11,607 nt of DNA from a virus: UHGV virus genome UHGV-0096542; one strand, given 5' to 3'. Position numbers and translations under genes: made by a program. Positions 1 through 11,330 of the stretch are shown in pieces (the stretch's first letter is position 1; the number at the start of each line of letters is the position of its first letter). The notes beneath the pieces are model-generated. The model was given only the letters and a program-made list of their open reading frames with translations. It was not told the DNA's origin and did no database searches.

Positions 1-262
1 CAGAACACTTGTGCGGCAATATCCCGGTCAACTCGGAAAGTTGCTCGTTGCTCACCCAATCCAGTTTTTTATTAAAGCCATATGTTTTGCGCATGACAGC
101 CAGGAAGACCAGAAGCTGGTGCTGTGTTAATCCGGCCAGCATCACAGCTTCCAGCAACTCATTTGCAATGCGCGTATAACCATCATCGAGATCTGCCACA
201 TTACGCTCCTGTCCGGCAAAGTTACCTCTGCCGAAGTTGAGTATTTTTGCTGTATTTGTCAT
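1..262 (-). CDS. O: Replication initiator O, N-terminal part (gene continues past window start); first ~29 aa match lambda O, then divergent but O-like
   Basis: Minus-strand translation from ATG at 262..260 gives MTNTAKILNFGRGNFAGQERNVADLDDGY..., matching the lambda O N-terminus as recalled; lies 32 nt downstream of the cII stop as in lambda. Confidence 0.8.
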   Translation of the reverse strand, partial: MTNTAKILNFGRGNFAGQERNVADLDDGYTRIANELLEAVMLAGLTQHQLLVFLAVMRKTYGFNKKLDWVSNEQLSELTGILPHKCS

Positions 263-272
263 AATGACTCCT

Positions 273-349
273 GTTGATAGATCCAGTAATGACCTCAGAA
301 CTCCATCTGGATTTGTTCAGAACGCTCGGTTGCCGCCGGGCGTTTTTTA
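273..349 (+). ncRNA. oop: oop antisense RNA (about 77 nt) with its intrinsic terminator; pO promoter just upstream (-35 TTGAGT 237..242, -10 CATAAT 260..265)
   Basis: Sequence GTTGATAGATCCAGTAATGACC...GCCGCCGGGCGTTTTTTATT matches recalled lambda oop RNA; GC hairpin plus T-run at 3' end; antisense to the cII 3' end (overlap 295..349). Confidence 0.65.
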
Positions 350-588
350 TTGGTGAGAATCGCAGCAACTTGTCGCGCCAATCGAGCCATGTCGTCGTCA
401 ACGACCCCCCATTCAAGAACAGCAAGCAGCATTGAGAACTTTGGAATCCAGTCTCTCTTCCACCTGCTGATCTGCGACTTATCAACTCCCACAGCTTCCG
501 CTGTCTTCTCAGTTCCAAGCATTGCGATTTTGTTAAGCAACGCACTCTCGATTCGTAGTGCCTCGTTGCGTTTGTTTGCACGAACCAT
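295..588 (-). CDS. cII: Transcriptional activator CII (97 aa)
   Basis: Translation MVRANKRNEALRIESALLNKIAMLGTEKTAEAVGVDKSQISRWKRDWIPKF...EQIQMEF matches lambda CII; the six-frame ORF 295..648 is an upstream extension, true start is the internal ATG (586..588 reads 'cat' on +). Confidence 0.95.
   Translation of the reverse strand: MVRANKRNEALRIESALLNKIAMLGTEKTAEAVGVDKSQISRWKRDWIPKFSMLLAVLEWGVVDDDMARLARQVAAILTNKKRPAATERSEQIQMEF
565..578 (+). promoter_or_regulatory. pRE -35 region with CII binding repeat TTGC-N6-TTGC (TTGCGTTTGTTTGC), directing transcription toward cI
   Basis: Direct repeat TTGC..TTGC with 6-nt spacer overlapping the cII start codon region, as known for lambda pRE. Confidence 0.6.
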
Positions 589-667
589 ATGTAAGTATTT
601 CCTTAGATAACAATTGATTGAATGTATGAAAATAAATGCATACACCATAGGTGTGGTTTAATTGGAT

Positions 668-699
668 GCCCTTTTTCAGGGCTGGGATGTGTAAGAGCG
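668..699 (-). promoter_or_regulatory. nutR (boxA CGCTCTTA + boxB GCCCTGAAAAAGGGC hairpin) N-utilisation site
   Basis: Reverse complement of 668..699 reads CGCTCTTACACATCCCAGCCCTGAAAAAGGGC; located between cro and cII as in lambda. Confidence 0.8.
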
Positions 700-707
700 G
701 GAATGTC

Positions 708-2062
<1,355 letters not shown>

Positions 2063-2112
2063 TCCCCACCTCAATCTCGATAACCAAAAAACAAACTATT
2101 TTCCGTTTAAAA

Positions 2113-2186
2113 ACAATGGAGTTTGTTTTTCACGCCCCTTTTTTACAATATTTCTTGTTTACAACATACAATCTTTCTTGTAATTT
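2113..2186 (+). promoter_or_regulatory. 434-type left operator sites (2113..2126, 2145..2158, 2168..2181) and pL promoter (-35 TTTACA 2158..2163, -10 TAATTT 2181..2186) reading rightward into N
   Basis: Three ACAA-N6-TTGT 14-mers (ACAATGGAGTTTGT, ACAATATTTCTTGT, ACAATCTTTCTTGT) overlapping a sigma70-like -35/-10 pair with 17-nt spacing, upstream of nutL and N. Confidence 0.7.
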
Positions 2187-2226
2187 TAAGCCATCAGCAG
2201 GACGCACTGACCACCATTGAAGGTGA

Positions 2227-2257
2227 TGCTCTTAAAAATTAAGCCCTGAAGAAGGGC
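2227..2257 (+). promoter_or_regulatory. nutL (boxA-like TGCTCTTA + boxB GCCCTGAAGAAGGGC)
   Basis: Sequence TGCTCTTAAAAATTAAGCCCTGAAGAAGGGC; boxB is a perfect 5-bp stem with GAAGA loop, matching lambda nutL. Confidence 0.85.
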
Positions 2258-2415
2258 AGCATTCAAAGCAGAAGGCTTTGGGGTGTGTGATACGAAACGA
2301 AGCATTGGCCGGAAGTGCGAATCCGGATTAGCTGCAAATGAGCCAATCGTGGGGTGTTTTCGTTCAGGACTACGACTCACACACACCACCAAAGCTAACT
2401 GACAAGAGAATCCAG

Positions 2416-2739
2416 ATGGATGCACAAACACGCCGCCGCGAACGTCGCGCAGAGAAACAGGCTCAATGGAAAGTAGCAAATCCCCTGTTGGTTGGGGTAA
2501 GCGCAAAACCAGTTAACCGCCCTATTCTCTCGCTGAATCGCAAACCGAAATCACGAGTAGAAAGCGCACTGAATCCGATAGACCTTACAGTGCTGGCTGA
2601 ATACCACGAACAGATTGAAAGCAACCTGCAACGTATTGAGCGCAAGAATCAGCGCACATGGTACAGCAAGCCTGGCGAACGCGGCATAACATGCAGTGGA
2701 CGCCAGAAAATTAAGGGAAAATCGATTCCTCTTACCTAG
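2416..2739 (+). CDS. N: Antitermination protein N (107 aa)
   Basis: Translation MDAQTRRRERRAEKQAQWK.ANPLLVGVSAKPVNRPILSLNRKPKSRVESALNPIDLTVLAEYH... matches lambda N (arginine-rich boxB-binding motif at N-terminus); the longer ORF from 2338 is an upstream extension. Confidence 0.95.
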   Translation: MDAQTRRRERRAEKQAQWKVANPLLVGVSAKPVNRPILSLNRKPKSRVESALNPIDLTVLAEYHEQIESNLQRIERKNQRTWYSKPGERGITCSGRQKIKGKSIPLT

Positions 2740-3294
2740 TTACTTAGATATTGGCCTTGGCTTTATCTCAATATTATATGGATCATAGCTGGCAACTAAT
2801 TCAGTCCAGTAAATATCCTCAATAGGGAATAATATATGCTTCCCGTTCCATCGGGAAAAAGTTTTGTTCAACACACCAAGCTCAATCAACTCACTAATGT
2901 ATGGGAATTGTTTTGATGTAACCACATACTTCCTGCCTTCATTAAGGGCTGCGCACAAAACCATAGATTGCTCTTCTGTAAGGTTTTGAATTACCGATCG
3001 CACTTTATCGTTTTGCATCTTAATGCGTTTTCTTAGCTTAAATCGCTTATATCTGGCGCTGGCAATAGCTGATAATCGATGCACATTAATTGCTAGCGAA
3101 AATGCAAGAGCAAAGACGAAAACATGCCACACATGAGGAATACCGATTCTCTCATTAACATATTCAGGCCAGTTATCTGGGCTTAAAAGCAGAAGTCCAA
3201 CCCAGATAACGATCATATACATGGTTCTCTCCAGAGGTTCATTACTGAACACTCGTCCGAGAATAACGAGTGGATCCATTTCTATACTCATCAA
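2740..3294 (-). CDS. sieB: Superinfection exclusion protein SieB (184 aa, membrane protein; contains the nested in-frame Esc start)
   Basis: Translation MMSIEMDPLVILGRVFSNEPLERTMYMIVIWVGLLLLSPDNWPEY... matches recalled lambda SieB; opposite strand to the pL operon as in lambda; length equals the lambda gene (555 nt). Confidence 0.9.
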   Translation of the reverse strand: MMSIEMDPLVILGRVFSNEPLERTMYMIVIWVGLLLLSPDNWPEYVNERIGIPHVWHVFVFALAFSLAINVHRLSAIASARYKRFKLRKRIKMQNDKVRSVIQNLTEEQSMVLCAALNEGRKYVVTSKQFPYISELIELGVLNKTFSRWNGKHILFPIEDIYWTELVASYDPYNIEIKPRPISK

Positions 3295-3418
3295 ACTGTA
3301 GGGGTTGTAATAGTTTATCCGATTTCTCGCTGTAGGGGTACACGAGAACCACCGAGCCTGATGTGGTTAAAAGACAGGCACAATCTTTACTACCGCAATC
3401 CACTATTTAAGGTGATAT

Positions 3419-3505
3419 ATGGAAGAAGAATTTGAAGAGTTCGAAGAGCATCCGCAGGATGTAATGGAACAGTACCAGGACTATCCGTATGACTACGACT
3501 ATTGA
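3419..3505 (+). CDS. orf28: Small acidic protein orf28 (28 aa, MEEEFEEFEEHPQDVMEQYQDYPYDYDY)
   Basis: Short ORF read manually (below six-frame length cut-off); position and length match the lambda orf28 locus immediately upstream of and overlapping ral. Confidence 0.55.
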   Translation: MEEEFEEFEEHPQDVMEQYQDYPYDYDY

Positions 3506-3668
3506 TAAGAATCAATGGTGTGGACAATTCAAGCGATGCAATGGATGCAAGCTGCAATCGGAATGCATGGTTAAGCCTGAAGAAATGTTTCCTGTAATAG
3601 AAGATGGGAAATATGTCGATAAATGGGCAATACGAACGACGGCAATGATTGCCAGAGAACTTGGTTAA
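3489..3668 (+). CDS. ral: Restriction alleviation protein Ral, apparently truncated to 59 aa by an in-frame TAA (lambda-length reading frame would end at 3689)
   Basis: Translation MTTTIDKNQWCGQFKRCNGCKLQSECMVKPEEMFPVIEDGKYVDKWAIRTTAMIARELG then TAA at 3666..3668, followed in frame by QNNKAA + TGA at 3687..3689. Confidence 0.8.
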   Translation: MTTTIDKNQWCGQFKRCNGCKLQSECMVKPEEMFPVIEDGKYVDKWAIRTTAMIARELG

Positions 3669-3825
3669 CAGAACAACAAAGCTGCCTGATAGTGGCCTTT
3701 ATTTTTGGCATAAATAACAGAATAAACACTGCACTGTGTATTCATTCCAACGAGTGAATACACGGAGCAATGTCGCTCGTAACTAAACAGGAGCCGACTT
3801 GTTCTGATTATTGGAAATCTTCTTT

Positions 3826-3851
3826 GCCCTCCAGTGTGAGGGCGATTTTTT
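3826..3851 (+). terminator. Intrinsic terminator-like hairpin (GCCCTC-N6-GAGGGC followed by T-run) within the pL operon upstream of ea10; expected to be read through under N antitermination
   Basis: Perfect 6-bp GC-rich inverted repeat 3826..3831/3838..3843 followed by GATTTTTTAT. Confidence 0.45.
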
Positions 3852-3871
3852 ATCTATGAGGATATGAACAG

Positions 3872-4240
3872 ATGTCAAACATCAAAAAATACATCATTGA
3901 TTACGACTGGAAAGCATCAATAGAAATTGAAATCGACCATGACGTAATGACAGAGGAAAAACTTCACCAGATTAATAATTTCTGGTCAGACTCTGAATAC
4001 CGACTCAATAAACACGGCTCTGTATTAAATGCTGTATTAATCATGCTGGCGCAATATGCTCTGCTTATAGCAATTTCGAAAGACTTAAATGCATATGGTG
4101 TTGTTTGTGAGTTCGACTGGGATGATGGAAATGGTCAGGAAGGATGGCCTCCAATGGATGGTAGTGAAGGAATAAGAATTACCGATATCGATACATCAGG
4201 AATATTTGATTCAGATGATATGACTATCAAGGCCGCCTGA
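3872..4240 (+). CDS. ea10: Ea10 early protein (122 aa; lambda Ea10/ssb-like)
   Basis: ORF with RBS-like GAGGATATGAACAGATG context; position and length (369 nt) identical to the lambda ea10 locus between ral and cIII. Confidence 0.85.
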   Translation: MSNIKKYIIDYDWKASIEIEIDHDVMTEEKLHQINNFWSDSEYRLNKHGSVLNAVLIMLAQYALLIAISKDLNAYGVVCEFDWDDGNGQEGWPPMDGSEGIRITDIDTSGIFDSDDMTIKAA

Positions 4241-4312
4241 GTGCGGTTTTACCGCATACCAATAACGCTTCACTCGAGGCGTTTTTCGTTATGTATAAAT
4301 AAGGAGCACACC

Positions 4313-4477
4313 ATGCAATATGCCATTGCAGGGTGGCCTGTTGCTGGCTGCCCTTCCGAATCTTTACTTGAACGAATCACCCGTAAATTACGTGACGGAT
4401 GGAAACGCCTTATCGACATACTTAATCAGCCAGGAGTCCCAAAGAATGGATCAAACACTTATGGCTATCCAGACTAA
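4313..4477 (+). CDS. cIII: CIII protease inhibitor (54 aa, anti-FtsH)
   Basis: Translation [54 protein letters not shown] matches lambda CIII; AAGGAG RBS upstream; the ORF from 4241 is an upstream extension. Confidence 0.95.
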   Translation: MQYAIAGWPVAGCPSESLLERITRKLRDGWKRLIDILNQPGVPKNGSNTYGYPD

Positions 4478-4589
4478 ATTCACTATCGCCACTTTTATTG
4501 GCGATGAAAAGATGTTTCGTGAAGCCGTCGACGCTTATAAAAAATGGATATTAATGCTGAAACTGAGATCAAGCAAAAGCATTCACTAA
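4446..4589 (+). CDS. kil: Kil host-killing protein (47 aa, FtsZ inhibitor), overlapping the cIII 3' end
   Basis: Translation [47 protein letters not shown]; length and overlap with cIII as in lambda. Confidence 0.85.
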
Positions 4590-4960
4590 CCCCCTTTCCT
4601 GTTTTCCTAATCAGCCTGGCATTTCGCGGGCGATATTTTCACAGCTATTTCAGGAGTTCAGCCATGAACGCTTATTACATTCAGGATCGTCTTGAGGCTC
4701 AGAGCTGGGCGCGTCACTACCAGCAGATCGCCCGAGAAGAGAAAGAGGCAGAACTGGCAGACGACATGGAAAAAGGCCTGCCCCAGCACCTGTTTGAATC
4801 GCTATGCATCGATCATTTGCAACGCCACGGGGCCAGCAAAAAAGCCATTACCCGTGCGTTTGATGACGATGTTGAGTTTCAGGAGCGCATGGCAGAACAC
4901 ATCCGGTACATGGTTGAAACCATTGCTCACCATCAGGTTGATATTGATTCAGAGGTATAA
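4544..4960 (+). CDS. gam: Gam RecBCD inhibitor (138 aa; internal start MNAYYIQ... at codon 41 gives the GamS form)
   Basis: Translation ...[98 protein letters not shown] matches lambda Gam. Confidence 0.95.
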
Positions 4961-4965
4961 AACGG

Positions 4966-5751
4966 ATGAGTACAGCACTCGCAACGCTGGCTGGGAAGCT
5001 GGCTGAACGAGTCGGCATGGATTCTGTCGACCCACAGGAACTGATCACCACTCTTCGCCAGACGGCATTTAAAGGTGATGCCAGCGATGCGCAGTTCATC
5101 GCATTGCTGATCGTCGCCAACCAGTACGGTCTTAATCCGTGGACGAAAGAAATTTACGCCTTCCCTGATAAGCAGAACGGCATCGTTCCGGTGGTGGGCG
5201 TTGATGGCTGGTCCCGCATCATCAACGAAAACCAGCAGTTTGACGGCATGGACTTTGAACAGGACAACGAATCCTGCACATGCCGGATTTACCGCAAGGA
5301 CCGTAATCATCCGATCTGCGTTACCGAGTGGATGGATGAATGCCGCCGCGAACCATTCAAAACCCGCGAAGGCAGAGAAATCACGGGGCCGTGGCAGTCG
5401 CATCCCAAACGGATGTTACGGCATAAAGCCATGATTCAGTGTGCCCGTCTCGCCTTCGGATTTGCTGGTATCTATGACAAGGATGAAGCCGAGCGCATTG
5501 TCGAAAATACTGCATACACTGCAGAACGTCAGCCGGAACGCGACATCACTCCGGTTAACGATGAAACCATGCAGGAGATTAACACTCTGCTGATCGCCCT
5601 GGATAAAACATGGGATGACGACTTATTGCCGCTCTGTTCCCAGATATTTCGCCGCGACATTCGCGCATCGTCAGAACTGACACAGGCCGAAGCAGTGAAA
5701 GCTCTTGGATTCCTGAAACAGAAAGCCACTGAGCAGAAGGTGGCAGCATGA
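4966..5751 (+). CDS. bet: Red beta single-strand annealing recombinase (261 aa)
   Basis: Translation [82 protein letters not shown]... matches lambda Beta; stop overlaps exo start. Confidence 0.97.
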
Positions 5752-6428
5752 CACCGGACATTATCCTGCAGCGTACCGGGATCGACGTGAGAGCTGTCGA
5801 ACAGGGGGATGATGCATGGCACAAATTACGGCTCGGCGTCATCACCGCTTCAGAAGTTCACAACGTGATAGCAAAGCCCCGATCAGGAAAGAAGTGGCCT
5901 GACATGAAAATGTCCTACTTCCACACCCTGCTAGCTGAGGTTTGCACCGGTGTGGCTCCGGAAGTTAACGCTAAAGCGCTGGCCTGGGGAAAACAGTACG
6001 AGAACGACGCCAGAACCCTGTTTGAGTTCACTTCCGGCGTAAATGTTATTGAATCCCCGATCATCTATCGCGACGAAAGTATGCGCACCGCCTGCTCTCC
6101 CGATGGTTTATGCAGTGACGGCAATGGCCTTGAGCTGAAATGCCCGTTTACCTCCCGGGATTTCATGAAATTCCGGCTCGGTGGTTTCGAGGCCATAAAG
6201 TCGGCTTACATGGCCCAGGTGCAGTACAGCATGTGGGTGACGCGAAAAGATGCCTGGTACTTTGCCAACTATGACCCGCGTATGAAGCGTGAAGGCCTGC
6301 ATTATGTCGTGATTGAGCGGAATGAAAAGTATATAGCGAGTTTTGACGAGATGGTGCCGGAGTTCATCGAGAAAATGGACGAGGCACTGGCTGAAATTGG
6401 TTTTGTATTTGGGGAGCAATGGCGATGA
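5748..6428 (+). CDS. exo: Lambda exonuclease (Red alpha, 226 aa)
   Basis: Translation [69 protein letters not shown]... matches lambda Exo; ATGA overlap with bet. Confidence 0.97.
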
Positions 6429-6607
6429 AACATCCTCACGATAATATCCGCGTAGGCACGATCACTTTCGTCTACTCCGTTACGAAGCGAGGCTGGGTAT
6501 TTCCCGGCCTTTCTGTTATCCGAAATCCCCTGAAAGCACAGCGGCTGGCTGAGGAGATAAATAATAAACGGGGAGCTGTATGCACAAAGCATCTCCCGTT
6601 GAGTTAA
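6425..6607 (+). CDS. orf60a: Early-left operon small protein orf60a (60 aa)
   Basis: [63 protein letters not shown]; position and length match the lambda orf60a locus, overlapping the exo stop. Confidence 0.75.
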
Positions 6608-6771
6608 GAACGAGTATCGAGATGGCACATAGCCTCGCTCAAATTGGAGTCAGGTTTGTGCCAATACCAGTAGAAACAGACGAAGAATTTCATACGTTAG
6701 CCGCATCCCTTTCACAAAAGCTGGAAATGATGGTGGCGAAAGCAGAAGCAGATGAGAGAGACCAGGTATGA
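6580..6771 (+). CDS. orf63: Early-left operon small protein orf63 (63 aa)
   Basis: [66 protein letters not shown]; position and length match the lambda orf63 locus. Confidence 0.75.
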   Translation: MHKASPVELRTSIEMAHSLAQIGVRFVPIPVETDEEFHTLAASLSQKLEMMVAKAEADERDQV

Positions 6772-7063
6772 CAACCACGGAATGCATTTTTCTGGCAGCG
6801 GGCTTCATATTCTGTGTGCTTATGCTTGCCGACATGGGACTTGTTCAATGACACCTCAGCAGGAAAACGCCCTTCGCAGCATTGCCCGTCAGGCTAATTC
6901 TGAAATCAAAAAAGCCAGACAGCAGTTTCCGGATAAAAACGTCGATGACATTTGCCGTAGCGTACTGAAGAAGCACCGCGAAACGGTAACGCTGATGGGA
7001 TTCACACCGACTCATTTAAGCCTGGCAATCGGCATGTTAAACGGCGTCTTTAAGGAACGATGA
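6752..7063 (+). CDS. orf61: orf61-like early protein, here open for 103 codons (lambda reference orf61 is 61 aa from the same start); alternative internal start at 6848 (MTPQQENALRSIARQ..., 71 aa)
   Basis: Start overlaps the orf63 3' end by 20 nt, the same arrangement as lambda orf61/orf63; codon 62 is AAA where the lambda-length gene would stop. Confidence 0.55.
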   Translation: MRETRYDNHGMHFSGSGLHILCAYACRHGTCSMTPQQENALRSIARQANSEIKKARQQFPDKNVDDICRSVLKKHRETVTLMGFTPTHLSLAIGMLNGVFKER

Positions 7064-7085
7064 ACATGAAAAGCAAAATCATCAG

Positions 7086-7106
7086 GGAGCTACAGGCTCC
7101 TTTTTT
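7086..7106 (+). terminator. Terminator-like hairpin (GGAGC-TACAG-GCTCC followed by TTTTTTATT) between orf61 and orf73
   Basis: 5-bp GC-rich inverted repeat followed by a T6 run; a 29-codon ORF (7066..7155) overlaps it but the hairpin plus T-tract fits a terminator better. Confidence 0.35.
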
Positions 7107-7161
7107 ATTATTCGCATTCACCCTCAAGCGTATTAACCAACAATTCAGGGATTAATGGAAG

Positions 7162-7383
7162 ATGGCAGACATCATTGATTCAGCATCAGAAATTGAAGAA
7201 TTACAGCGCAACACAGCAATAAAAATGCGCCGCCTGAACCACCAGGCTATATCTGCCACTCATTGTTGTGAGTGTGGCGATCCGATAGATGAACGAAGAC
7301 GCCTGGTCGTTCAGGGTTGTCGGACTTGTGCAAGTTGCCAGGAGGATCTGGAGCTTATCAGTAAACAGAGAGGTTCGAAGTGA
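7162..7383 (+). CDS. orf73: TraR/DksA-family C4 zinc-finger protein (lambda orf73-like, 73 aa), RNA polymerase secondary-channel binding regulator
   Basis: Translation MADIIDSASEIEELQRNTAIKMRRLNHQAISATHCCECGDPIDERRRLVVQGCRTCASCQEDLELISKQRGSK has the CxxC-N17-CxxC pattern (C-E-C ... C-A-S-C) and size typical of TraR-like proteins. Confidence 0.8.
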   Translation: MADIIDSASEIEELQRNTAIKMRRLNHQAISATHCCECGDPIDERRRLVVQGCRTCASCQEDLELISKQRGSK

Positions 7384-7535
7384 GCGAAATTAACTAGAAG
7401 CCAAAGATAAAATCATCGCTGAGCAGGAGAAAATCGCTAACGGAGAAAAGACAGTAAGTCAGTATATGAAAACCGCATGATATCATCAGATAAAAATCGG
7501 TCGTAGAGCAAAATATTAATACCAGAACAAACGAG

Positions 7536-7559
7536 TCGAGGTAAATTATATTACCTCGA
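7536..7559 (-). terminator. Hairpin (9-bp stem TCGAGGTAA / TTACCTCGA, 6-nt loop) immediately downstream of the minus-strand membrane-protein gene; candidate terminator for that gene
   Basis: Perfect 9-bp inverted repeat 7536..7544/7551..7559 about 35 nt beyond the stop codon at 7594..7596; followed on the minus strand by a moderately U-rich tract (CUCGUUUGUUCUG). Confidence 0.4.
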
Positions 7560-7593
7560 TAAATTAACTAAAACTTGCCCGCTATATACTATA

Positions 7594-8196
7594 TCATTCA
7601 GTATCATCACGCACGGTCTGTGCATATGTCACTACCGCACCTAATATATTAATTTTCTTTTCAACATAGATAATATTATCGTACTCATAATTGCCATACG
7701 GATAGCAAATGCGAATATTCTCATGTAGATCGGGGTCATCCACCTCAGCGCCAGAACAACTTTTTGAACTACCGGAAGTATACCGATACGGTGCAACATA
7801 AGACGATGTCTCTCCAGGCAAAAAATAAGTTAGTGTCGTAAGGGGTATAATCAGAAAAAATCCAGCAAATATGCACATCCCTGCATAAACCTTAAGGTAT
7901 GCTGACAGACTCTTCCAGCCTCTTTGTTTTACTATCCCCTTCTTAACCCAAAACAGAGATAACAGAAAAGCTATTCCCATGCTAAACAGAATGTAATAGT
8001 GGGATATACTCTGATTAAGAAACGTGACCCTGTAGATATCTGCCCGCCACCAGAAGAAAAGGAAAATAAAGATCAGCCCTGAAACTGTCATGCAAATCAA
8101 ATAAGGATACGAATCTTTTTTCATGTTTAGCGCCCATAAAATTTTTCCTGACCCGGACAAATTTACCATCCATTTTTTGCGCAGAAAATAACTCAT
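7594..8196 (-). CDS. Hypothetical integral membrane protein (200 aa from first ATG; alternative starts at codons 10 and 25), three predicted TM helices plus a ~75-aa C-terminal domain; antisense to the pL operon in the ea22/ea8.5 slot
   Basis: Long uninterrupted minus-strand ORF in a markedly AT-rich segment; hydrophobic stretches YLICMTVSGLIFIFLFFWW, YYILFSMGIAFLLSLFWV, VYAGMCIFAGFFLIIPLTTLTYFL; followed by a hairpin; no resemblance to lambda proteins I know. Confidence 0.7.
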   Translation of the reverse strand: MSYFLRKKWMVNLSGSGKILWALNMKKDSYPYLICMTVSGLIFIFLFFWWRADIYRVTFLNQSISHYYILFSMGIAFLLSLFWVKKGIVKQRGWKSLSAYLKVYAGMCIFAGFFLIIPLTTLTYFLPGETSSYVAPYRYTSGSSKSCSGAEVDDPDLHENIRICYPYGNYEYDNIIYVEKKINILGAVVTYAQTVRDDTE

Positions 8197-8438
8197 TACT
8201 TACTGCACAATAATACACAAAATTGCGTAAATTTTTTGCATGGATTTTAGCTCTTTCAGCCGACATTTAAGGGGTAAATAGCATTTCCTAAAAGCAACTG
8301 CACCAACCCAACAGAATGGGCTACCGCTTACGTTGAGAGCAAAAAAGTGTATAGCAGCAATGAACAGCATCCTCGCACTGACGAGGATTTCTTTTATCTG
8401 AACTCGCTACGGCGGGTTTTGTTTTATGGAGATGATAA

Positions 8439-8606
8439 ATGCACTTCCGAGTCACAGGTGAATGGAATGGAGAACCATTCAACAGAGTTATCGAAGCCGA
8501 GAACATCAGCGACTGCTATGACCACTGGATGCTGTGGGCGCAGATAGCACATGCAGACGTAACCAATATTCGAATTGAAGAACTGAAAGAACACCAAGCC
8601 GCCTGA
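8439..8606 (+). CDS. Small hypothetical protein (55 aa, MHFRVTGEWNGEPFNRVIEAENISDCYDHWMLWAQIAHADVTNIRIEELKEHQAA) immediately upstream of xis
   Basis: ORF read manually (below six-frame cut-off); GGAG 8 nt upstream of ATG; in-frame TAA directly upstream fixes the start; stop codon lies in the loop of the following hairpin. Confidence 0.45.
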   Translation: MHFRVTGEWNGEPFNRVIEAENISDCYDHWMLWAQIAHADVTNIRIEELKEHQAA

Positions 8607-8618
8607 TGGCGGTTTTTT
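8599..8618 (+). terminator. Intrinsic terminator-like hairpin (CCGCC-TGAT-GGCGG + T6) just upstream of pI/xis
   Basis: 5-bp GC stem 8599..8603/8608..8612 followed by TTTTTT at 8613..8618. Confidence 0.4.
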
Positions 8619-8619
8619 C

Positions 8620-8633
8620 TTGCGTGTAATTGC
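8620..8633 (+). promoter_or_regulatory. pI promoter -35 region with CII binding repeat (TTGCGTGTAATTGC) driving int
   Basis: TTGC-N6-TTGC direct repeat 12 nt upstream of the xis ATG, matching the recalled lambda pI CII site. Confidence 0.6.
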
Positions 8634-8645
8634 GGAGACTTTGCG

Positions 8646-8864
8646 ATGTACTTGACACTTCAGGAGTGGAACGCACGCCAGCGACGCCCAAGAAGCCTTG
8701 AAACAGTTCGTCGATGGGTACGCGAGTGCAGGATATTCCCTCCTCCGGTTAAGGATGGAAGAGAGTATCTGTTCCACGAATCAGCGGTAAAGGTTGACTT
8801 AAATCGACCAGTAACAGGTAGCCTTTTGAAGAGGATCAGAAATGGGAAGAAGGCGAAGTCATGA
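8646..8864 (+). CDS. xis: Excisionase Xis (72 aa)
   Basis: Translation MYLTLQEWNARQRRPRSLETVRRWVRECRIFPPPVKDGREYLFHESAVKVDLNRPVTGSLLKRIRNGKKAKS matches lambda Xis; overlaps int start. Confidence 0.97.
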   Translation: MYLTLQEWNARQRRPRSLETVRRWVRECRIFPPPVKDGREYLFHESAVKVDLNRPVTGSLLKRIRNGKKAKS

Positions 8865-9912
8865 GCGCCGGGATTTACCCCCTAACCTTTATATAAGAAA
8901 CAATGGATATTACTGCTACAGGGACCCAAGGACGGGTAAAGAGTTTGGATTAGGCAGAGACAGGCGAATCGCAATCACTGAAGCCATACAGGCCAACATT
9001 GAGTTATTTTCAGGACACAAACACAAGCCTCTGACAGCGAGAATCAACAGTGATAATTCCGTTACGTTACATTCATGGCTTGATCGCTACGAAAAAATCC
9101 TGGCCAGCAGAGGAATCAAGCAGAAGACACTCATAAATTACATGAGCAAAATTAAAGCAATAAGGAGGGGGCTGCCTGATGCTCCACTTGAAGACATCAC
9201 CACAAAAGAAATTGCGGCAATGCTCAATGGATACATAGACGAGGGCAAGGCGGCGTCAGCCAAGTTAATCAGATCAACACTGAGCGATGCATTCCGAGAG
9301 GCAATAGCTGAAGGCCATATAACAACAAACCCTGTCGCTGCCACTCGCGCAGCAAAATCAGAGGTAAGGAGATCAAGACTTACGGCTGACGAATACCTGA
9401 AAATTTATCAAGCAGCAGAATCATCACCATGTTGGCTCAGACTTGCAATGGAACTGGCTGTTGTTACCGGGCAACGAGTTGGTGATTTATGCGAAATGAA
9501 GTGGTCTGATATCGTAGATGGATATCTTTATGTCGAGCAAAGCAAAACAGGCGTAAAAATTGCCATCCCAACAGCATTGCATGTTGATGCTCTCGGAATA
9601 TCAATGAAGGAAACACTTGATAAATGCAAAGAGATTCTTGACGGAGAAACCATAATTGCATCTACTCGTCGTGAACCGCTTTCATCCGGCACAGTATCAA
9701 GGTATTTTATGCGCGCACGAAAAGCATCAGGTCTTTCCTTCGAAGGGGATCCGCCTACCTTTCACGAGTTGCGCAGTTTGTCTGCAAGACTCTATGAGAA
9801 GCAGATAAGCGATAAGTTTGCTCAACATCTTCTCGGGCATAAGTCGGACACCATGGCATCACAGTATCGTGATGACAGAGGCAGGGAGTGGGACAAAATT
9901 GAAATCAAATAA
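8842..9912 (+). CDS. int: Lambda integrase Int (356 aa, tyrosine recombinase)
   Basis: Translation MGRRRSHERRDLPPNLYIRNNGYYCYRDPRTGKEFGLGRDRRIAITEAIQANIELF...HELRSLSARLYEKQISDKFAQHLLGHKSDTMASQYRDDRGREWDKIEIK matches lambda Int including the C-terminal catalytic H-x-x-R...Y region. Confidence 0.97.
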   Translation: MGRRRSHERRDLPPNLYIRNNGYYCYRDPRTGKEFGLGRDRRIAITEAIQANIELFSGHKHKPLTARINSDNSVTLHSWLDRYEKILASRGIKQKTLINYMSKIKAIRRGLPDAPLEDITTKEIAAMLNGYIDEGKAASAKLIRSTLSDAFREAIAEGHITTNPVAATRAAKSEVRRSRLTADEYLKIYQAAESSPCWLRLAMELAVVTGQRVGDLCEMKWSDIVDGYLYVEQSKTGVKIAIPTALHVDALGISMKETLDKCKEILDGETIIASTRREPLSSGTVSRYFMRARKASGLSFEGDPPTFHELRSLSARLYEKQISDKFAQHLLGHKSDTMASQYRDDRGREWDKIEIK

Positions 9913-10005
9913 TGATTTTATTTTGACTGATAGTGACCTGTTCGTTGCAACAAATTGATAAGCAATGCTTTTTTATAATGCCAACTTAGTATAAAAAAGC
10001 AGGCT
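9913..10005. other. attL: attL (B-O-P') prophage/host junction: P' arm with Int arm-type site (reverse complement AGGTCACTATCAG at about 9925..9937) and IHF-like site, 15-bp core at 9986..10000, then host B arm
   Basis: Reverse complement of 9981..10008 reads TGAAGCCTGCTTTTTTATACTAAGTTGG, i.e. core GCTTTTTTATACTAA flanked by attB-type left arm (CTGC) and attP-type right arm (GTTGG). Confidence 0.85.
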
Positions 10006-10046: not shown

Positions 10047-11330
10047 GTGAACACATTTTCAGTTTCCCGTCTGGCGCTGGCATTGGCTTTTGGCGTGACG
10101 CTGACCGCCTGTAGCTCAACACCGCCCGATCAACGTCCTTCTGATCAAACCGCGCCTGGTACCTCTTCTCGCCCGATTCTGTCGGCAAAAGAAGCGCAGA
10201 ATTTCGATGCTCAACACTATTTTGCATCCCTGACACCAGGTGCTGCAGCGTGGAATCCTTCCCCGATTACCCTGCCTGCGCAACCTGACTTTGTTGTCGG
10301 CCCGGCGGGTACTCCAGGTGTAACGCATACCACGATTCAGGCGGCGGTAGATGCGGCAATTATCAAGCGCACCAACAAGCGCCAGTATATTGCCGTGATG
10401 CCTGGTGAGTATCAGGGAACGGTATATGTCCCTGCCGCTCCGGGTGGAATTACTCTGTACGGTACAGGTGAAAAACCGATTGATGTGAAGATTGGGCTTT
10501 CCCTTGATGGTGGCATGAGCCCTGCCGACTGGCGTCACGACGTCAACCCGCGCGGCAAATATATGCCAGGTAAACCAGCGTGGTATATGTACGATAGCTG
10601 CCAGAGCAAACGCAGCGACAGTATCGGTGTTCTCTGCTCTGCGGTCTTCTGGTCACAAAACAATGGCCTGCAACTGCAAAATCTGACCATCGAAAACACG
10701 CTGGGCGATAGCGTAGATGCAGGTAACCATCCGGCGGTGGCACTGCGTACTGATGGTGACCAGGTACAGATTAACAACGTTAACATTCTCGGTCGTCAGA
10801 ACACCTTCTTTGTCACCAACAGCGGTGTGCAGAACCGTCTGGAAACCAACCGTCAGCCGCGTACGCTGGTGACCAACAGCTACATTGAAGGGGATGTGGA
10901 TATCGTTTCTGGTCGCGGCGCAGTGGTGTTCGATAATACCGAATTCCGCGTGGTGAACTCACGTACTCAGCAAGAAGCGTATGTGTTTGCACCGGCTACG
11001 CTGTCCAACATCTATTACGGTTTCCTCGCCGTAAACAGCCGTTTCAATGCTTCCGGTGATGGCGTGGCGCAACTGGGCCGCTCGCTGGATGTTGATGCCA
11101 ATACCAACGGTCAGGTGGTGATCCGTGATAGCGCCATCAACGAAGGTTTTAACACGGCTAAACCGTGGGCCGATGCGGTGATTTCCAATCGTCCGTTTGC
11201 GGGTAATACTGGCAACGTTGATGATAACGACGAAGTACAGCGTAATCTGAATGACACTAACTACAACCGCATGTGGGAATACAATAACCGCGGCGTGGGT
11301 AGCAAAGTGGTTGCAGAGGCGAAGAAGTAA
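10047..11330 (+). CDS. ybhC: Host outer-membrane lipoprotein YbhC (pectinesterase-fold; 427 aa, GTG start)
   Basis: N-terminal lipoprotein signal MNTFSVSRLALALAFGVTLTAC (lipobox LTAC); this gene flanks attB(lambda) on the gal side in E. coli; long ORF with host-like codon usage. Confidence 0.9.
   Translation: MNTFSVSRLALALAFGVTLTACSSTPPDQRPSDQTAPGTSSRPILSAKEAQNFDAQHYFASLTPGAAAWNPSPITLPAQPDFVVGPAGTPGVTHTTIQAAVDAAIIKRTNKRQYIAVMPGEYQGTVYVPAAPGGITLYGTGEKPIDVKIGLSLDGGMSPADWRHDVNPRGKYMPGKPAWYMYDSCQSKRSDSIGVLCSAVFWSQNNGLQLQNLTIENTLGDSVDAGNHPAVALRTDGDQVQINNVNILGRQNTFFVTNSGVQNRLETNRQPRTLVTNSYIEGDVDIVSGRGAVVFDNTEFRVVNSRTQQEAYVFAPATLSNIYYGFLAVNSRFNASGDGVAQLGRSLDVDANTNGQVVIRDSAINEGFNTAKPWADAVISNRPFAGNTGNVDDNDEVQRNLNDTNYNRMWEYNNRGVGSKVVAEAKK

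Follow-up and report, generated by a model that had tools for sequence, protein, structure and literature searches.

A recombinant O gene joins a lambda-type start to a P22-like DNA-binding allele in a 434-like Escherichia coli prophage

Introduction

Does a 434-like prophage that carries the cII and oop of lambda also carry the replication specificity of lambda? The question is raised by the O gene at the left end of an 11,607-nt stretch of the virus genome UHGV-0096542 (the window, by which we mean this whole stretch; positions given alone refer to it). An initial annotation, made from the sequence alone, had read the O translation as lambda O over its first 29 or so codons and as a different O allele thereafter, placed a recombination breakpoint near position 175, and proposed that the prophage probably replicates from a non-lambda ori. 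Here we examine the junction, the modules that it separates and the frequency with which it recurs.

Results

The O gene lies in the left arm of a 434-like prophage

Judged by its matches, the window comprises the left arm of a lambdoid, 434-like E. coli prophage and the junction of that prophage with the host chromosome (Table 1). Positions 177-10000 are about 98% identical by megablast to lambda imm434 and to phage 434, and the homology to phage 434 stops at position 10000, which is the annotated attP core. The prophage is 434-like, and not lambda itself, because its cI and cro are of the 434 type. The closest match found beside O is an imm434 prophage of E. coli S30, identical at 99.65% of positions 177-3600 without a gap.

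Several features of this arm lie apart from O. The only long prophage stretch without a match in phage 434, positions 2730-3711, adjoins N and constitutes another mosaic junction pair. A SieB superinfection-exclusion gene occupies 2743-3294 on the minus strand (PF14163, E=1e-29) and is present in the S30 prophage too; phage 434 has a Nun-C-terminal-peptide gene at this place. About 440 bp of phage 434, from xis to the downstream ORFs (2886-3323 of the 434 locus L125), is without a counterpart in the window, and the BLAST pieces to 434 meet at 8615-8618, pointing to a small deletion or replacement relative to 434. A 158-aa ORF on the plus strand (1586-2062), which is without a Pfam match, overlaps the end of the 434-type cI and corresponds to the 434 'Hex' repressor-protection gene, annotated in phage 434 as just 405 nt with its start codon noted as uncertain.

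Table 1 Features of the window, ordered by position
Feature	Position	Strand	Basis or remark
O, from its start to codon 87, where it runs off the window end	262..1	-	
O codons 30-87, non-lambda, 4C10/1W-type DNA-binding segment	1..176	-	100% nucleotide identity to 4C10-type O, 53.4% to lambda; inside PF04492
Crossover interval, O codons 22-29 (VADLDDGY)	177..199	-	Equals lambda 38749-38771; contains GATC/BglII site
O codons 1-21, lambda-type head MTNTAKILNFGRGNFAGQERN	200..262	-	Identical to lambda O; outside the Pfam domain
pO, promoter for oop RNA	237..265	+	-35 TTGAGT 237-242, 17-nt spacer, TG-extended -10 CATAAT 260-265
oop antisense RNA (presumed extent)	273..349	+	Terminator-like hairpin with T run 319-346; 98.9% identical to lambda
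cII, lambda-type, 97 aa	295-588	-	ORF translation with MVRANKRNEALRIESALLNK...EQIQMEF; cII at matching position in lambda and 434 records
434 cro	about 708-922	-	
Phage 434 repressor cI	1029-1661	+	
N	2338-2739		PF11438
bet and exo	4966-6428	+	
xis and lambda-type int	int 8842-9912	+	
Host gene ybhC	10047-11330	+	Prophage sits at att-lambda beside ybhC

Two O alleles meet in a 23-bp block

The minus-strand translation of the gene reads MTNTAKILNFGRGNFAGQERNVADLDDGY followed by TRIANELLEAVMLAGLTQHQLLVFLAVMRKTYGFNKKLDWVSNEQLSELTGILPHKCS (its opening quoted as MTNTAKILNFGRGNFAGQERNVADLDDGYTRIANELLEAVMLAGLTQHQ...), and lambda O (NC_001416 38686-39585) reads MTNTAKILNFGRGNFAGQERNVADLDDGY followed by ARLSNMLLEAYSGADLTKRQFKVLLAILRKTYGWNKPMDRITDSQ..., continuing after residue 29 as ARLSNMLLEAYSGADLTKRQ... 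Residues 1-29 are identical to those of lambda O (NP_040631). At the nucleotide level, the lambda match in megablast runs from position 700 to 177 at 98.9% identity, is perfect over 200-300, and ends at 177. The S30 match likewise ends at 177, where that prophage continues into a lambda-type O (297/300 identical to lambda O). From the other direction, positions 1-199 are identical at every nucleotide (199/199) to the O genes of phages 4C10, 4A7, 1W, 3W, Perceval, PhiR26_1 and PhiR47_2. In a three-way alignment of the hybrid, lambda and 4C10, both tracts share the 23-bp block GTGGCAGATCTCGATGATGGTTA at 177-199. Outside the block, the identity of lambda to 4C10 is 50.8% in the preceding 63 nt and 53.4% in the following 176 nt; inside it, 23/23 positions agree, and no other identity run of at least 8 nt joins the two alleles in that alignment.

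A lambda tract and a 4C10 tract that overlap in a block of identity are the signature of a crossover within that block, and the step from 100% to about 53% identity, mirrored on the other side, makes a chance pattern impossible. O in this prophage is a genuine recombinant gene, with a lambda-type start joined to a P22-like DNA-binding allele. The initial annotation was right in its essentials. Its first 29 codons match lambda O exactly and those that follow belong to another allele; its breakpoint near 175 agrees, within the resolution of the data, with a crossover interval of 177-199; the lambda O sequence that it had quoted, and on which its reading depended, is correct against NC_001416; and the cII and oop that it had called lambda-type lie within the 98.9% identical tract.

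The same alignment bears on an origin without recombination, in which an old O allele diverged independently while its N-terminus remained conserved with lambda. Members of the O family do keep a common start, M-x-N-(T/L)-A, and the residues VA(D/E)(L/V/I)(D/E)DG(Y/F) at 22-29 across many alleles, as such a history would have it. Divergence, however, gives no step function of the kind seen here, where 98.9% identity to lambda over 177-700 (100% over 200-300) drops to 53% over 1-176. Independent divergence is already refuted by the complete identity of 1-176 to another allele that shares only 50.8% identity with lambda in its own head, and we give this origin practically no credence.

The crossover falls at the edge of the DNA-binding domain

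The Pfam domain Phage_rep_O (PF04492) matches residues 22-87 of the hybrid with E=2.8e-25 and 89.1 bits against a cut-off of 28.7, spanning positions 2-67 of the 95 in the profile before the window ends. The domain begins at residue 22 in both the hybrid and lambda and at residue 21 in 4C10, and the residues encoded by the block, VADLDDGY (22-29), are its first conserved element. As delimited by this profile, the crossover falls exactly at the boundary between the head and the domain of O.

Taken from 4C10, and compared with lambda over residues 22-118, the domain of this allele shares 64.6% protein identity with P22 gp18, 50% with lambda, 48.9% with 933W and 37.8% with phi80. The allele occurs in 16 phage records, and its protein cluster (P0106) has 7,825 member sequences. 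The initial annotation had proposed a comparison with the O proteins of lambda, 82, 21, phi80 and HK97. None of these phages is among the 16 records, and the domains of lambda and phi80, which were compared directly, are not this allele. The native 4C10 head, MANTAEIFNFPVPD..., and the gene upstream of it are not found in the window, where the head is that of lambda.

Full-length relatives point to a non-lambda origin

The residues that follow the junction make up nearly all of the DNA-binding domain and full-length relatives carry TTACCYGAATCAGGTAA iterons, so the origin of this prophage is likely to be non-lambda, with P22-like iterons and a lambda-type P, and to lie left of position 1. This assignment, which agrees with what the initial annotation expected, is well supported but indirect. 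In the 4C10 O gene, five TTACCYGAATCAGGTAA iterons at 19-29-bp spacing are followed by an AT-rich ACAAAAGACAA repeat, and the four ATCCCTCAAAACGAGGGA iterons of lambda O stand at the equivalent place. Gene 18 of P22 resembles the 4C10-type gene in its iterons (TTTACCAGATCGGTAAA and variants) and shares its ACAAAAGACAAT repeat. Past the iterons, the 4C10-type O has a lambda-like C-terminus (SSENS...DQPENDL to the end) and is followed by lambda-type P and ren. The iterons, C-terminus and P of the prophage itself, left of position 1, are predicted from these full-length relatives. A literature search found no description of the iterons of this allele, and a search for solved structures related to O by sequence found none.

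The O genes compared here also vary in length. The 4C10-type proteins range from 310 to 339 aa (P0111, P0113-P0116, P0118) by loss or gain of LPESGKK/LPKSGK units, so that the number of origin iterons varies between otherwise near-identical alleles. One lambda-type O of 395 aa (P0105) has about 96 residues of its C-terminal domain tandemly duplicated (TAEDLTAAEWMF...GKPKL twice). In phage D2 (OM475427), the 4C10-type match covers only 160/176 nt and ends near window position 17, which suggests a further junction inside the DNA-binding domain.

The lambda-type head carries a predicted degron and the oop promoter

Residues 2-12 of the hybrid O (positions 227-259) read TNTAKILNFGR, identical to the tag of lambda O, an N-motif-1 ClpX degron (PMC12723719, PMC8138137). 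With this motif in place, the hybrid O is predicted to be degraded through ClpX. The same stretch of DNA holds pO, which a promoter scan placed opposite O codons 1-9 at a position homologous to lambda pO, in the tract that is 98.9% identical to lambda; pO has been implicated in the control of lambda replication (PMC3985674). The cII-oop-pO unit of lambda is thereby present in all its parts, namely a leftward promoter over the O start, a terminator in the 3' end of cII and a lambda-type cII, and neither pO nor the oop terminator reaches across the junction from the lambda side. The coordinates of oop in Table 1 were transferred from what we take to be its extent in lambda, 38675-38599. The phage 434 record annotates oop RNA at the homologous place, and an Rfam search of positions 1-3000 gave no match, oop included. 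An AlphaFold model of the 87-residue fragment, poor overall (mean pLDDT 59.8), gave pLDDT below 50 for residues 1-21, a hint that the head may be unstructured.

The native 4C10 head also has a pO-like promoter at the homologous position (TTGAAT-17-CATAAT with TG; 3935-3963 of L001, minus strand). An oop-like terminator was looked for upstream of 4C10 O and not found, and a gene other than cII lies upstream there. The similarity of the first nine or so O codons across alleles may be due to conservation of an antisense promoter.

Because pO is embedded in the head, the lambda head might be expected to travel always with lambda cII and oop. The IMG/VR loci reject this idea: among those with a lambda head, 21 cease to resemble lambda 50-100 nt upstream of the block and 20 do so 100-150 nt upstream. 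The head is therefore a small separate tile with a recurrent junction at either end. Of these two, the upstream one coincides with a conserved 33-bp pO/oop-start sequence that has been noted before (PMC3349717).

The combination is rare and occurs in two assemblies

The junction is absent from 50,697 phage records and from 5,426 complete E. coli genomes, though 3,415 of the latter match one side or the other. Searches with the junction pattern in IMG/VR, and with two patterns each in GTDB representative genomes and JGI metagenome contigs, returned 0 matches. No full-length hybrid protein occurs among 5.8 billion clusters; the protein database has just one partial copy, and the best full-coverage matches to the hybrid are 94% identical and carry the native 4C10 head. 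We used the 23-mer to draw 120 contigs from IMG/VR, added the window, the second instance described below and the reference loci of lambda and 4C10, and tallied which head goes with which domain. A lambda head preceded a lambda domain in 63 loci, a 4C10 head preceded a 4C10 domain in 56, and a third head preceded a lambda domain in 3. The 4C10-type domain had its native head in 56/56 IMG/VR loci and the lambda head only in the window and in the second instance (L003).

That second instance is a 1,430-bp contig, JAVUOW010000313.1, of E. coli GCA_032029315.1, which encodes the partial protein WP_312827337.1. The Cro encoded beside its junction is not that of 434 but a member of the lambda Cro family (PF09048). 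Against the window, the contig has 5 SNPs on the lambda side of the junction and 3 on the far side. Both sequences stop shortly past the block, after 176 nt in the window and 201 nt in the contig.

Short ends of this kind invite the reading that two prophages of one strain, one with a lambda-type O and the other with a 4C10-type O, were joined through the block by a short-read assembler. Both parental alleles are very common in E. coli, with protein clusters of 7,825 and 4,186 members, yet the junction turned up in none of the collections searched, whether complete genomes, phage records, IMG/VR, GTDB representatives or JGI metagenomes. Contigs as short as the one of 1,430 bp are typical of repeat-rich prophage regions in draft assemblies. 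Modern assemblers, on the other hand, commonly build their final contigs with k values of 55-127. A 23-bp repeat is shorter than these k-mers, and joining across it would normally need spanning reads. The same junction is moreover seen in two assemblies that differ by 8 SNPs over both sides and have different cro types, and real recombinants at the block, or within about 10 nt of it, exist inside long contigs. We consider a chimeric assembly decidedly improbable. That two independent assemblies have the junction beside different modules speaks for a real recombinant that is circulating or recurrent. A lambda head with a 4C10 domain is a rare combination and a new recombinant, and it is ordinary lambdoid mosaicism.

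Other lineages exchange modules at the same boundary

The three loci with a third head, MGVVKLADYRPLEPVVERN, come from IMG/VR contigs of 32-42 kb (L029, L043 and L056) in which the O gene is fully interior. Here the head is joined to a lambda-type domain at the block or at most about 10 nt before it. As aligned, these loci independently show natural exchange at the head/domain boundary. Their O proteins continue with lambda-like iteron-encoded residues and then a wholly different C-terminal domain (...MSESVRTKCEKSS...RWNDEKPETIQ...), which implies a different helicase-loading partner.

Three places in O have recurrent junctions, namely the O start/pO, the block and the region past the iterons. 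Past the block, IMG/VR loci switch at 250-300 nt in 10 lambda-type cases and at about 750 nt in 5 4C10-type cases. On these comparisons, O is composed of at least three tiles: a head (residues 1-21), a DNA-binding domain with the iterons (about 22-150) and a C-terminal domain.

The block itself is conserved beyond the two parental alleles. In P22 gene 18 (L124, codons 21-28), 20/23 block positions match, several identical synonymous positions included. The block also carries a GATC (Dam/SeqA) site within AGATCT.

Discussion

The hybrid O very probably arose by homologous recombination in the 23-bp block between two phages, of which one had a lambda-type O and the other a 4C10/1W-type O. Most likely, two co-resident or co-infecting lambdoid genomes would have exchanged DNA within the interval 177-199 by 'relaxed' homologous recombination. 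The S30 prophage, which follows the window closely over 177-3600 and then enters a lambda-type O, represents a near-parental left arm. From the lambda side, the recombinant would have kept cII, oop, pO and the 21-residue head with its ClpX degron; from the other, it would have received the foreign DNA-binding domain with its own TTACCYGAATCAGGTAA iterons (about five), the AT-rich region, the lambda-like C-terminus and, by extension from the relatives, lambda P. The resulting O is predicted to bind P22-like iterons within its own gene and to recruit DnaB via a lambda-type P. Its transcription would start at 434 pR and pass through lambda-type cII/oop/pO, and the lambda tag would mark the protein for degradation by ClpXP.

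Plausible agents of the exchange are the prophage's own Exo and Bet (Table 1), as Red promotes exchange between diverged sequences and so generates phage mosaics (PMC3945230). The quoted minimum for Red-beta recombination is about 30 bp (PMC3945230), and a block of 23 bp falls short of it, which makes the pathway uncertain. Both the functionality of the hybrid O and the recombination pathway are what we infer from sequence comparison.

How far the foreign DNA extends is a further matter on which the same comparisons bear. As a sub-variant of recombination in the block, a double exchange may have replaced only the domain and iterons (about codons 30-170), with P, ren, nin, Q and onward staying 434/S30-like. 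Of its two crossovers, the left would lie at the 23-bp block and the right in the C-terminal half of O, where the two alleles are nearly identical. The lambda-like C-terminal half of the 4C10-type O, with P next in both parents, would offer several hundred bp of homology for a second crossover, and the switches past the iteron region in 10 lambda-type and 5 4C10-type loci show that such exchanges recur among IMG/VR O genes. We regard a cassette of this extent as a plausible outcome, though we lean slightly against it. With either extent, recombination in the block remains our preferred account of the junction itself.

A broader proposal is that the block owes its identity to more than conservation of the encoded amino acids and serves as a 'linker' conserved at the nucleotide level at the head/domain boundary of O and as a preferred exchange point among lambdoid phages. 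We hold this proposal to be unlikely. If it were true, swaps at the block would reassort the head, with its ClpX degron and pO, independently of origin specificity, and a hybrid would differ measurably from both parents; an initiator for a P22-like origin might, for example, gain lambda-type ClpXP turnover, since Lys6 of the lambda tag is replaced by Glu in the native 4C10 head.

The hybrid O reveals neither a new mechanism nor a new protein family. In a textbook protein, it is a clean case from nature of mosaicism between domains, here the regulatory head of O and its origin-recognition domain, and it adds one more case to an old question, namely whether short conserved sequences at module boundaries are used for exchange. 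Intragenic junctions in O are not discussed in a 2022 Microbial Genomics paper on the mosaicism of lambdoid phages (PMC9836094). For annotation, resemblance to 434/lambda from int to cII is no guarantee that a prophage replicates with the specificity of lambda, and predictions of replication-based exclusion, compatibility with lambda-ori plasmids and recombination with co-resident prophages are affected.

Compared with known systems, the hybrid resembles the O genes of lambda, phage 434 and the S30 prophage in residues 1-29, in the upstream cII-oop-pO (98.9% nucleotide identity), in the PF04492 domain and in its position after cII. It differs from lambda O in that the domain from residue 30 is another allele (53% nucleotide identity in the window; 50% protein identity over residues 22-118, from 4C10), and lambda iterons ATCCCTCAAAACGAGGGA would not be expected in it. 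With the O genes of 4C10, 4A7, 1W, 3W, Perceval, PhiR26_1 and PhiR47_2 it shares the domain allele as far as this is visible, at 100% over 1-199. Those genes, in contrast, begin with a head of their own, MANTAEIFNFPVPDVAQKE(P/R)R, with 50.8% nucleotide identity to that of lambda and Glu at the place of the degron Lys6, and they follow a gene for a 179-aa protein, not lambda cII. Among classical phages, P22 gp18 is the closest relative of the hybrid's DNA-binding domain (64.6%), and its iterons and ACAAAAGACAAT repeats resemble those of the 4C10-type gene; the C-terminus of gp18, however, is unrelated to that of lambda O, and gp18 pairs with the DnaB-like gp12, whereas the 4C10-type O has a lambda-type C-terminus and is followed by lambda P. 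The nearest laboratory counterpart is the hybrid lambda cI857(18,12)P22 (lambda hy106), whose junction lies at -19 inside pO, at lambda 38694 (PMC3349717). Like the prophage, hy106 combines lambda-type cII and oop with a non-lambda replication module through a junction in the same small region. The hy106 junction falls about 55-75 bp upstream of the one described here and leaves a hybrid pO followed by wholly P22 genes 18 and 12, whereas in the window pO and the first 21 codons of O are lambda-type and the junction sits inside the coding sequence, at the domain boundary.
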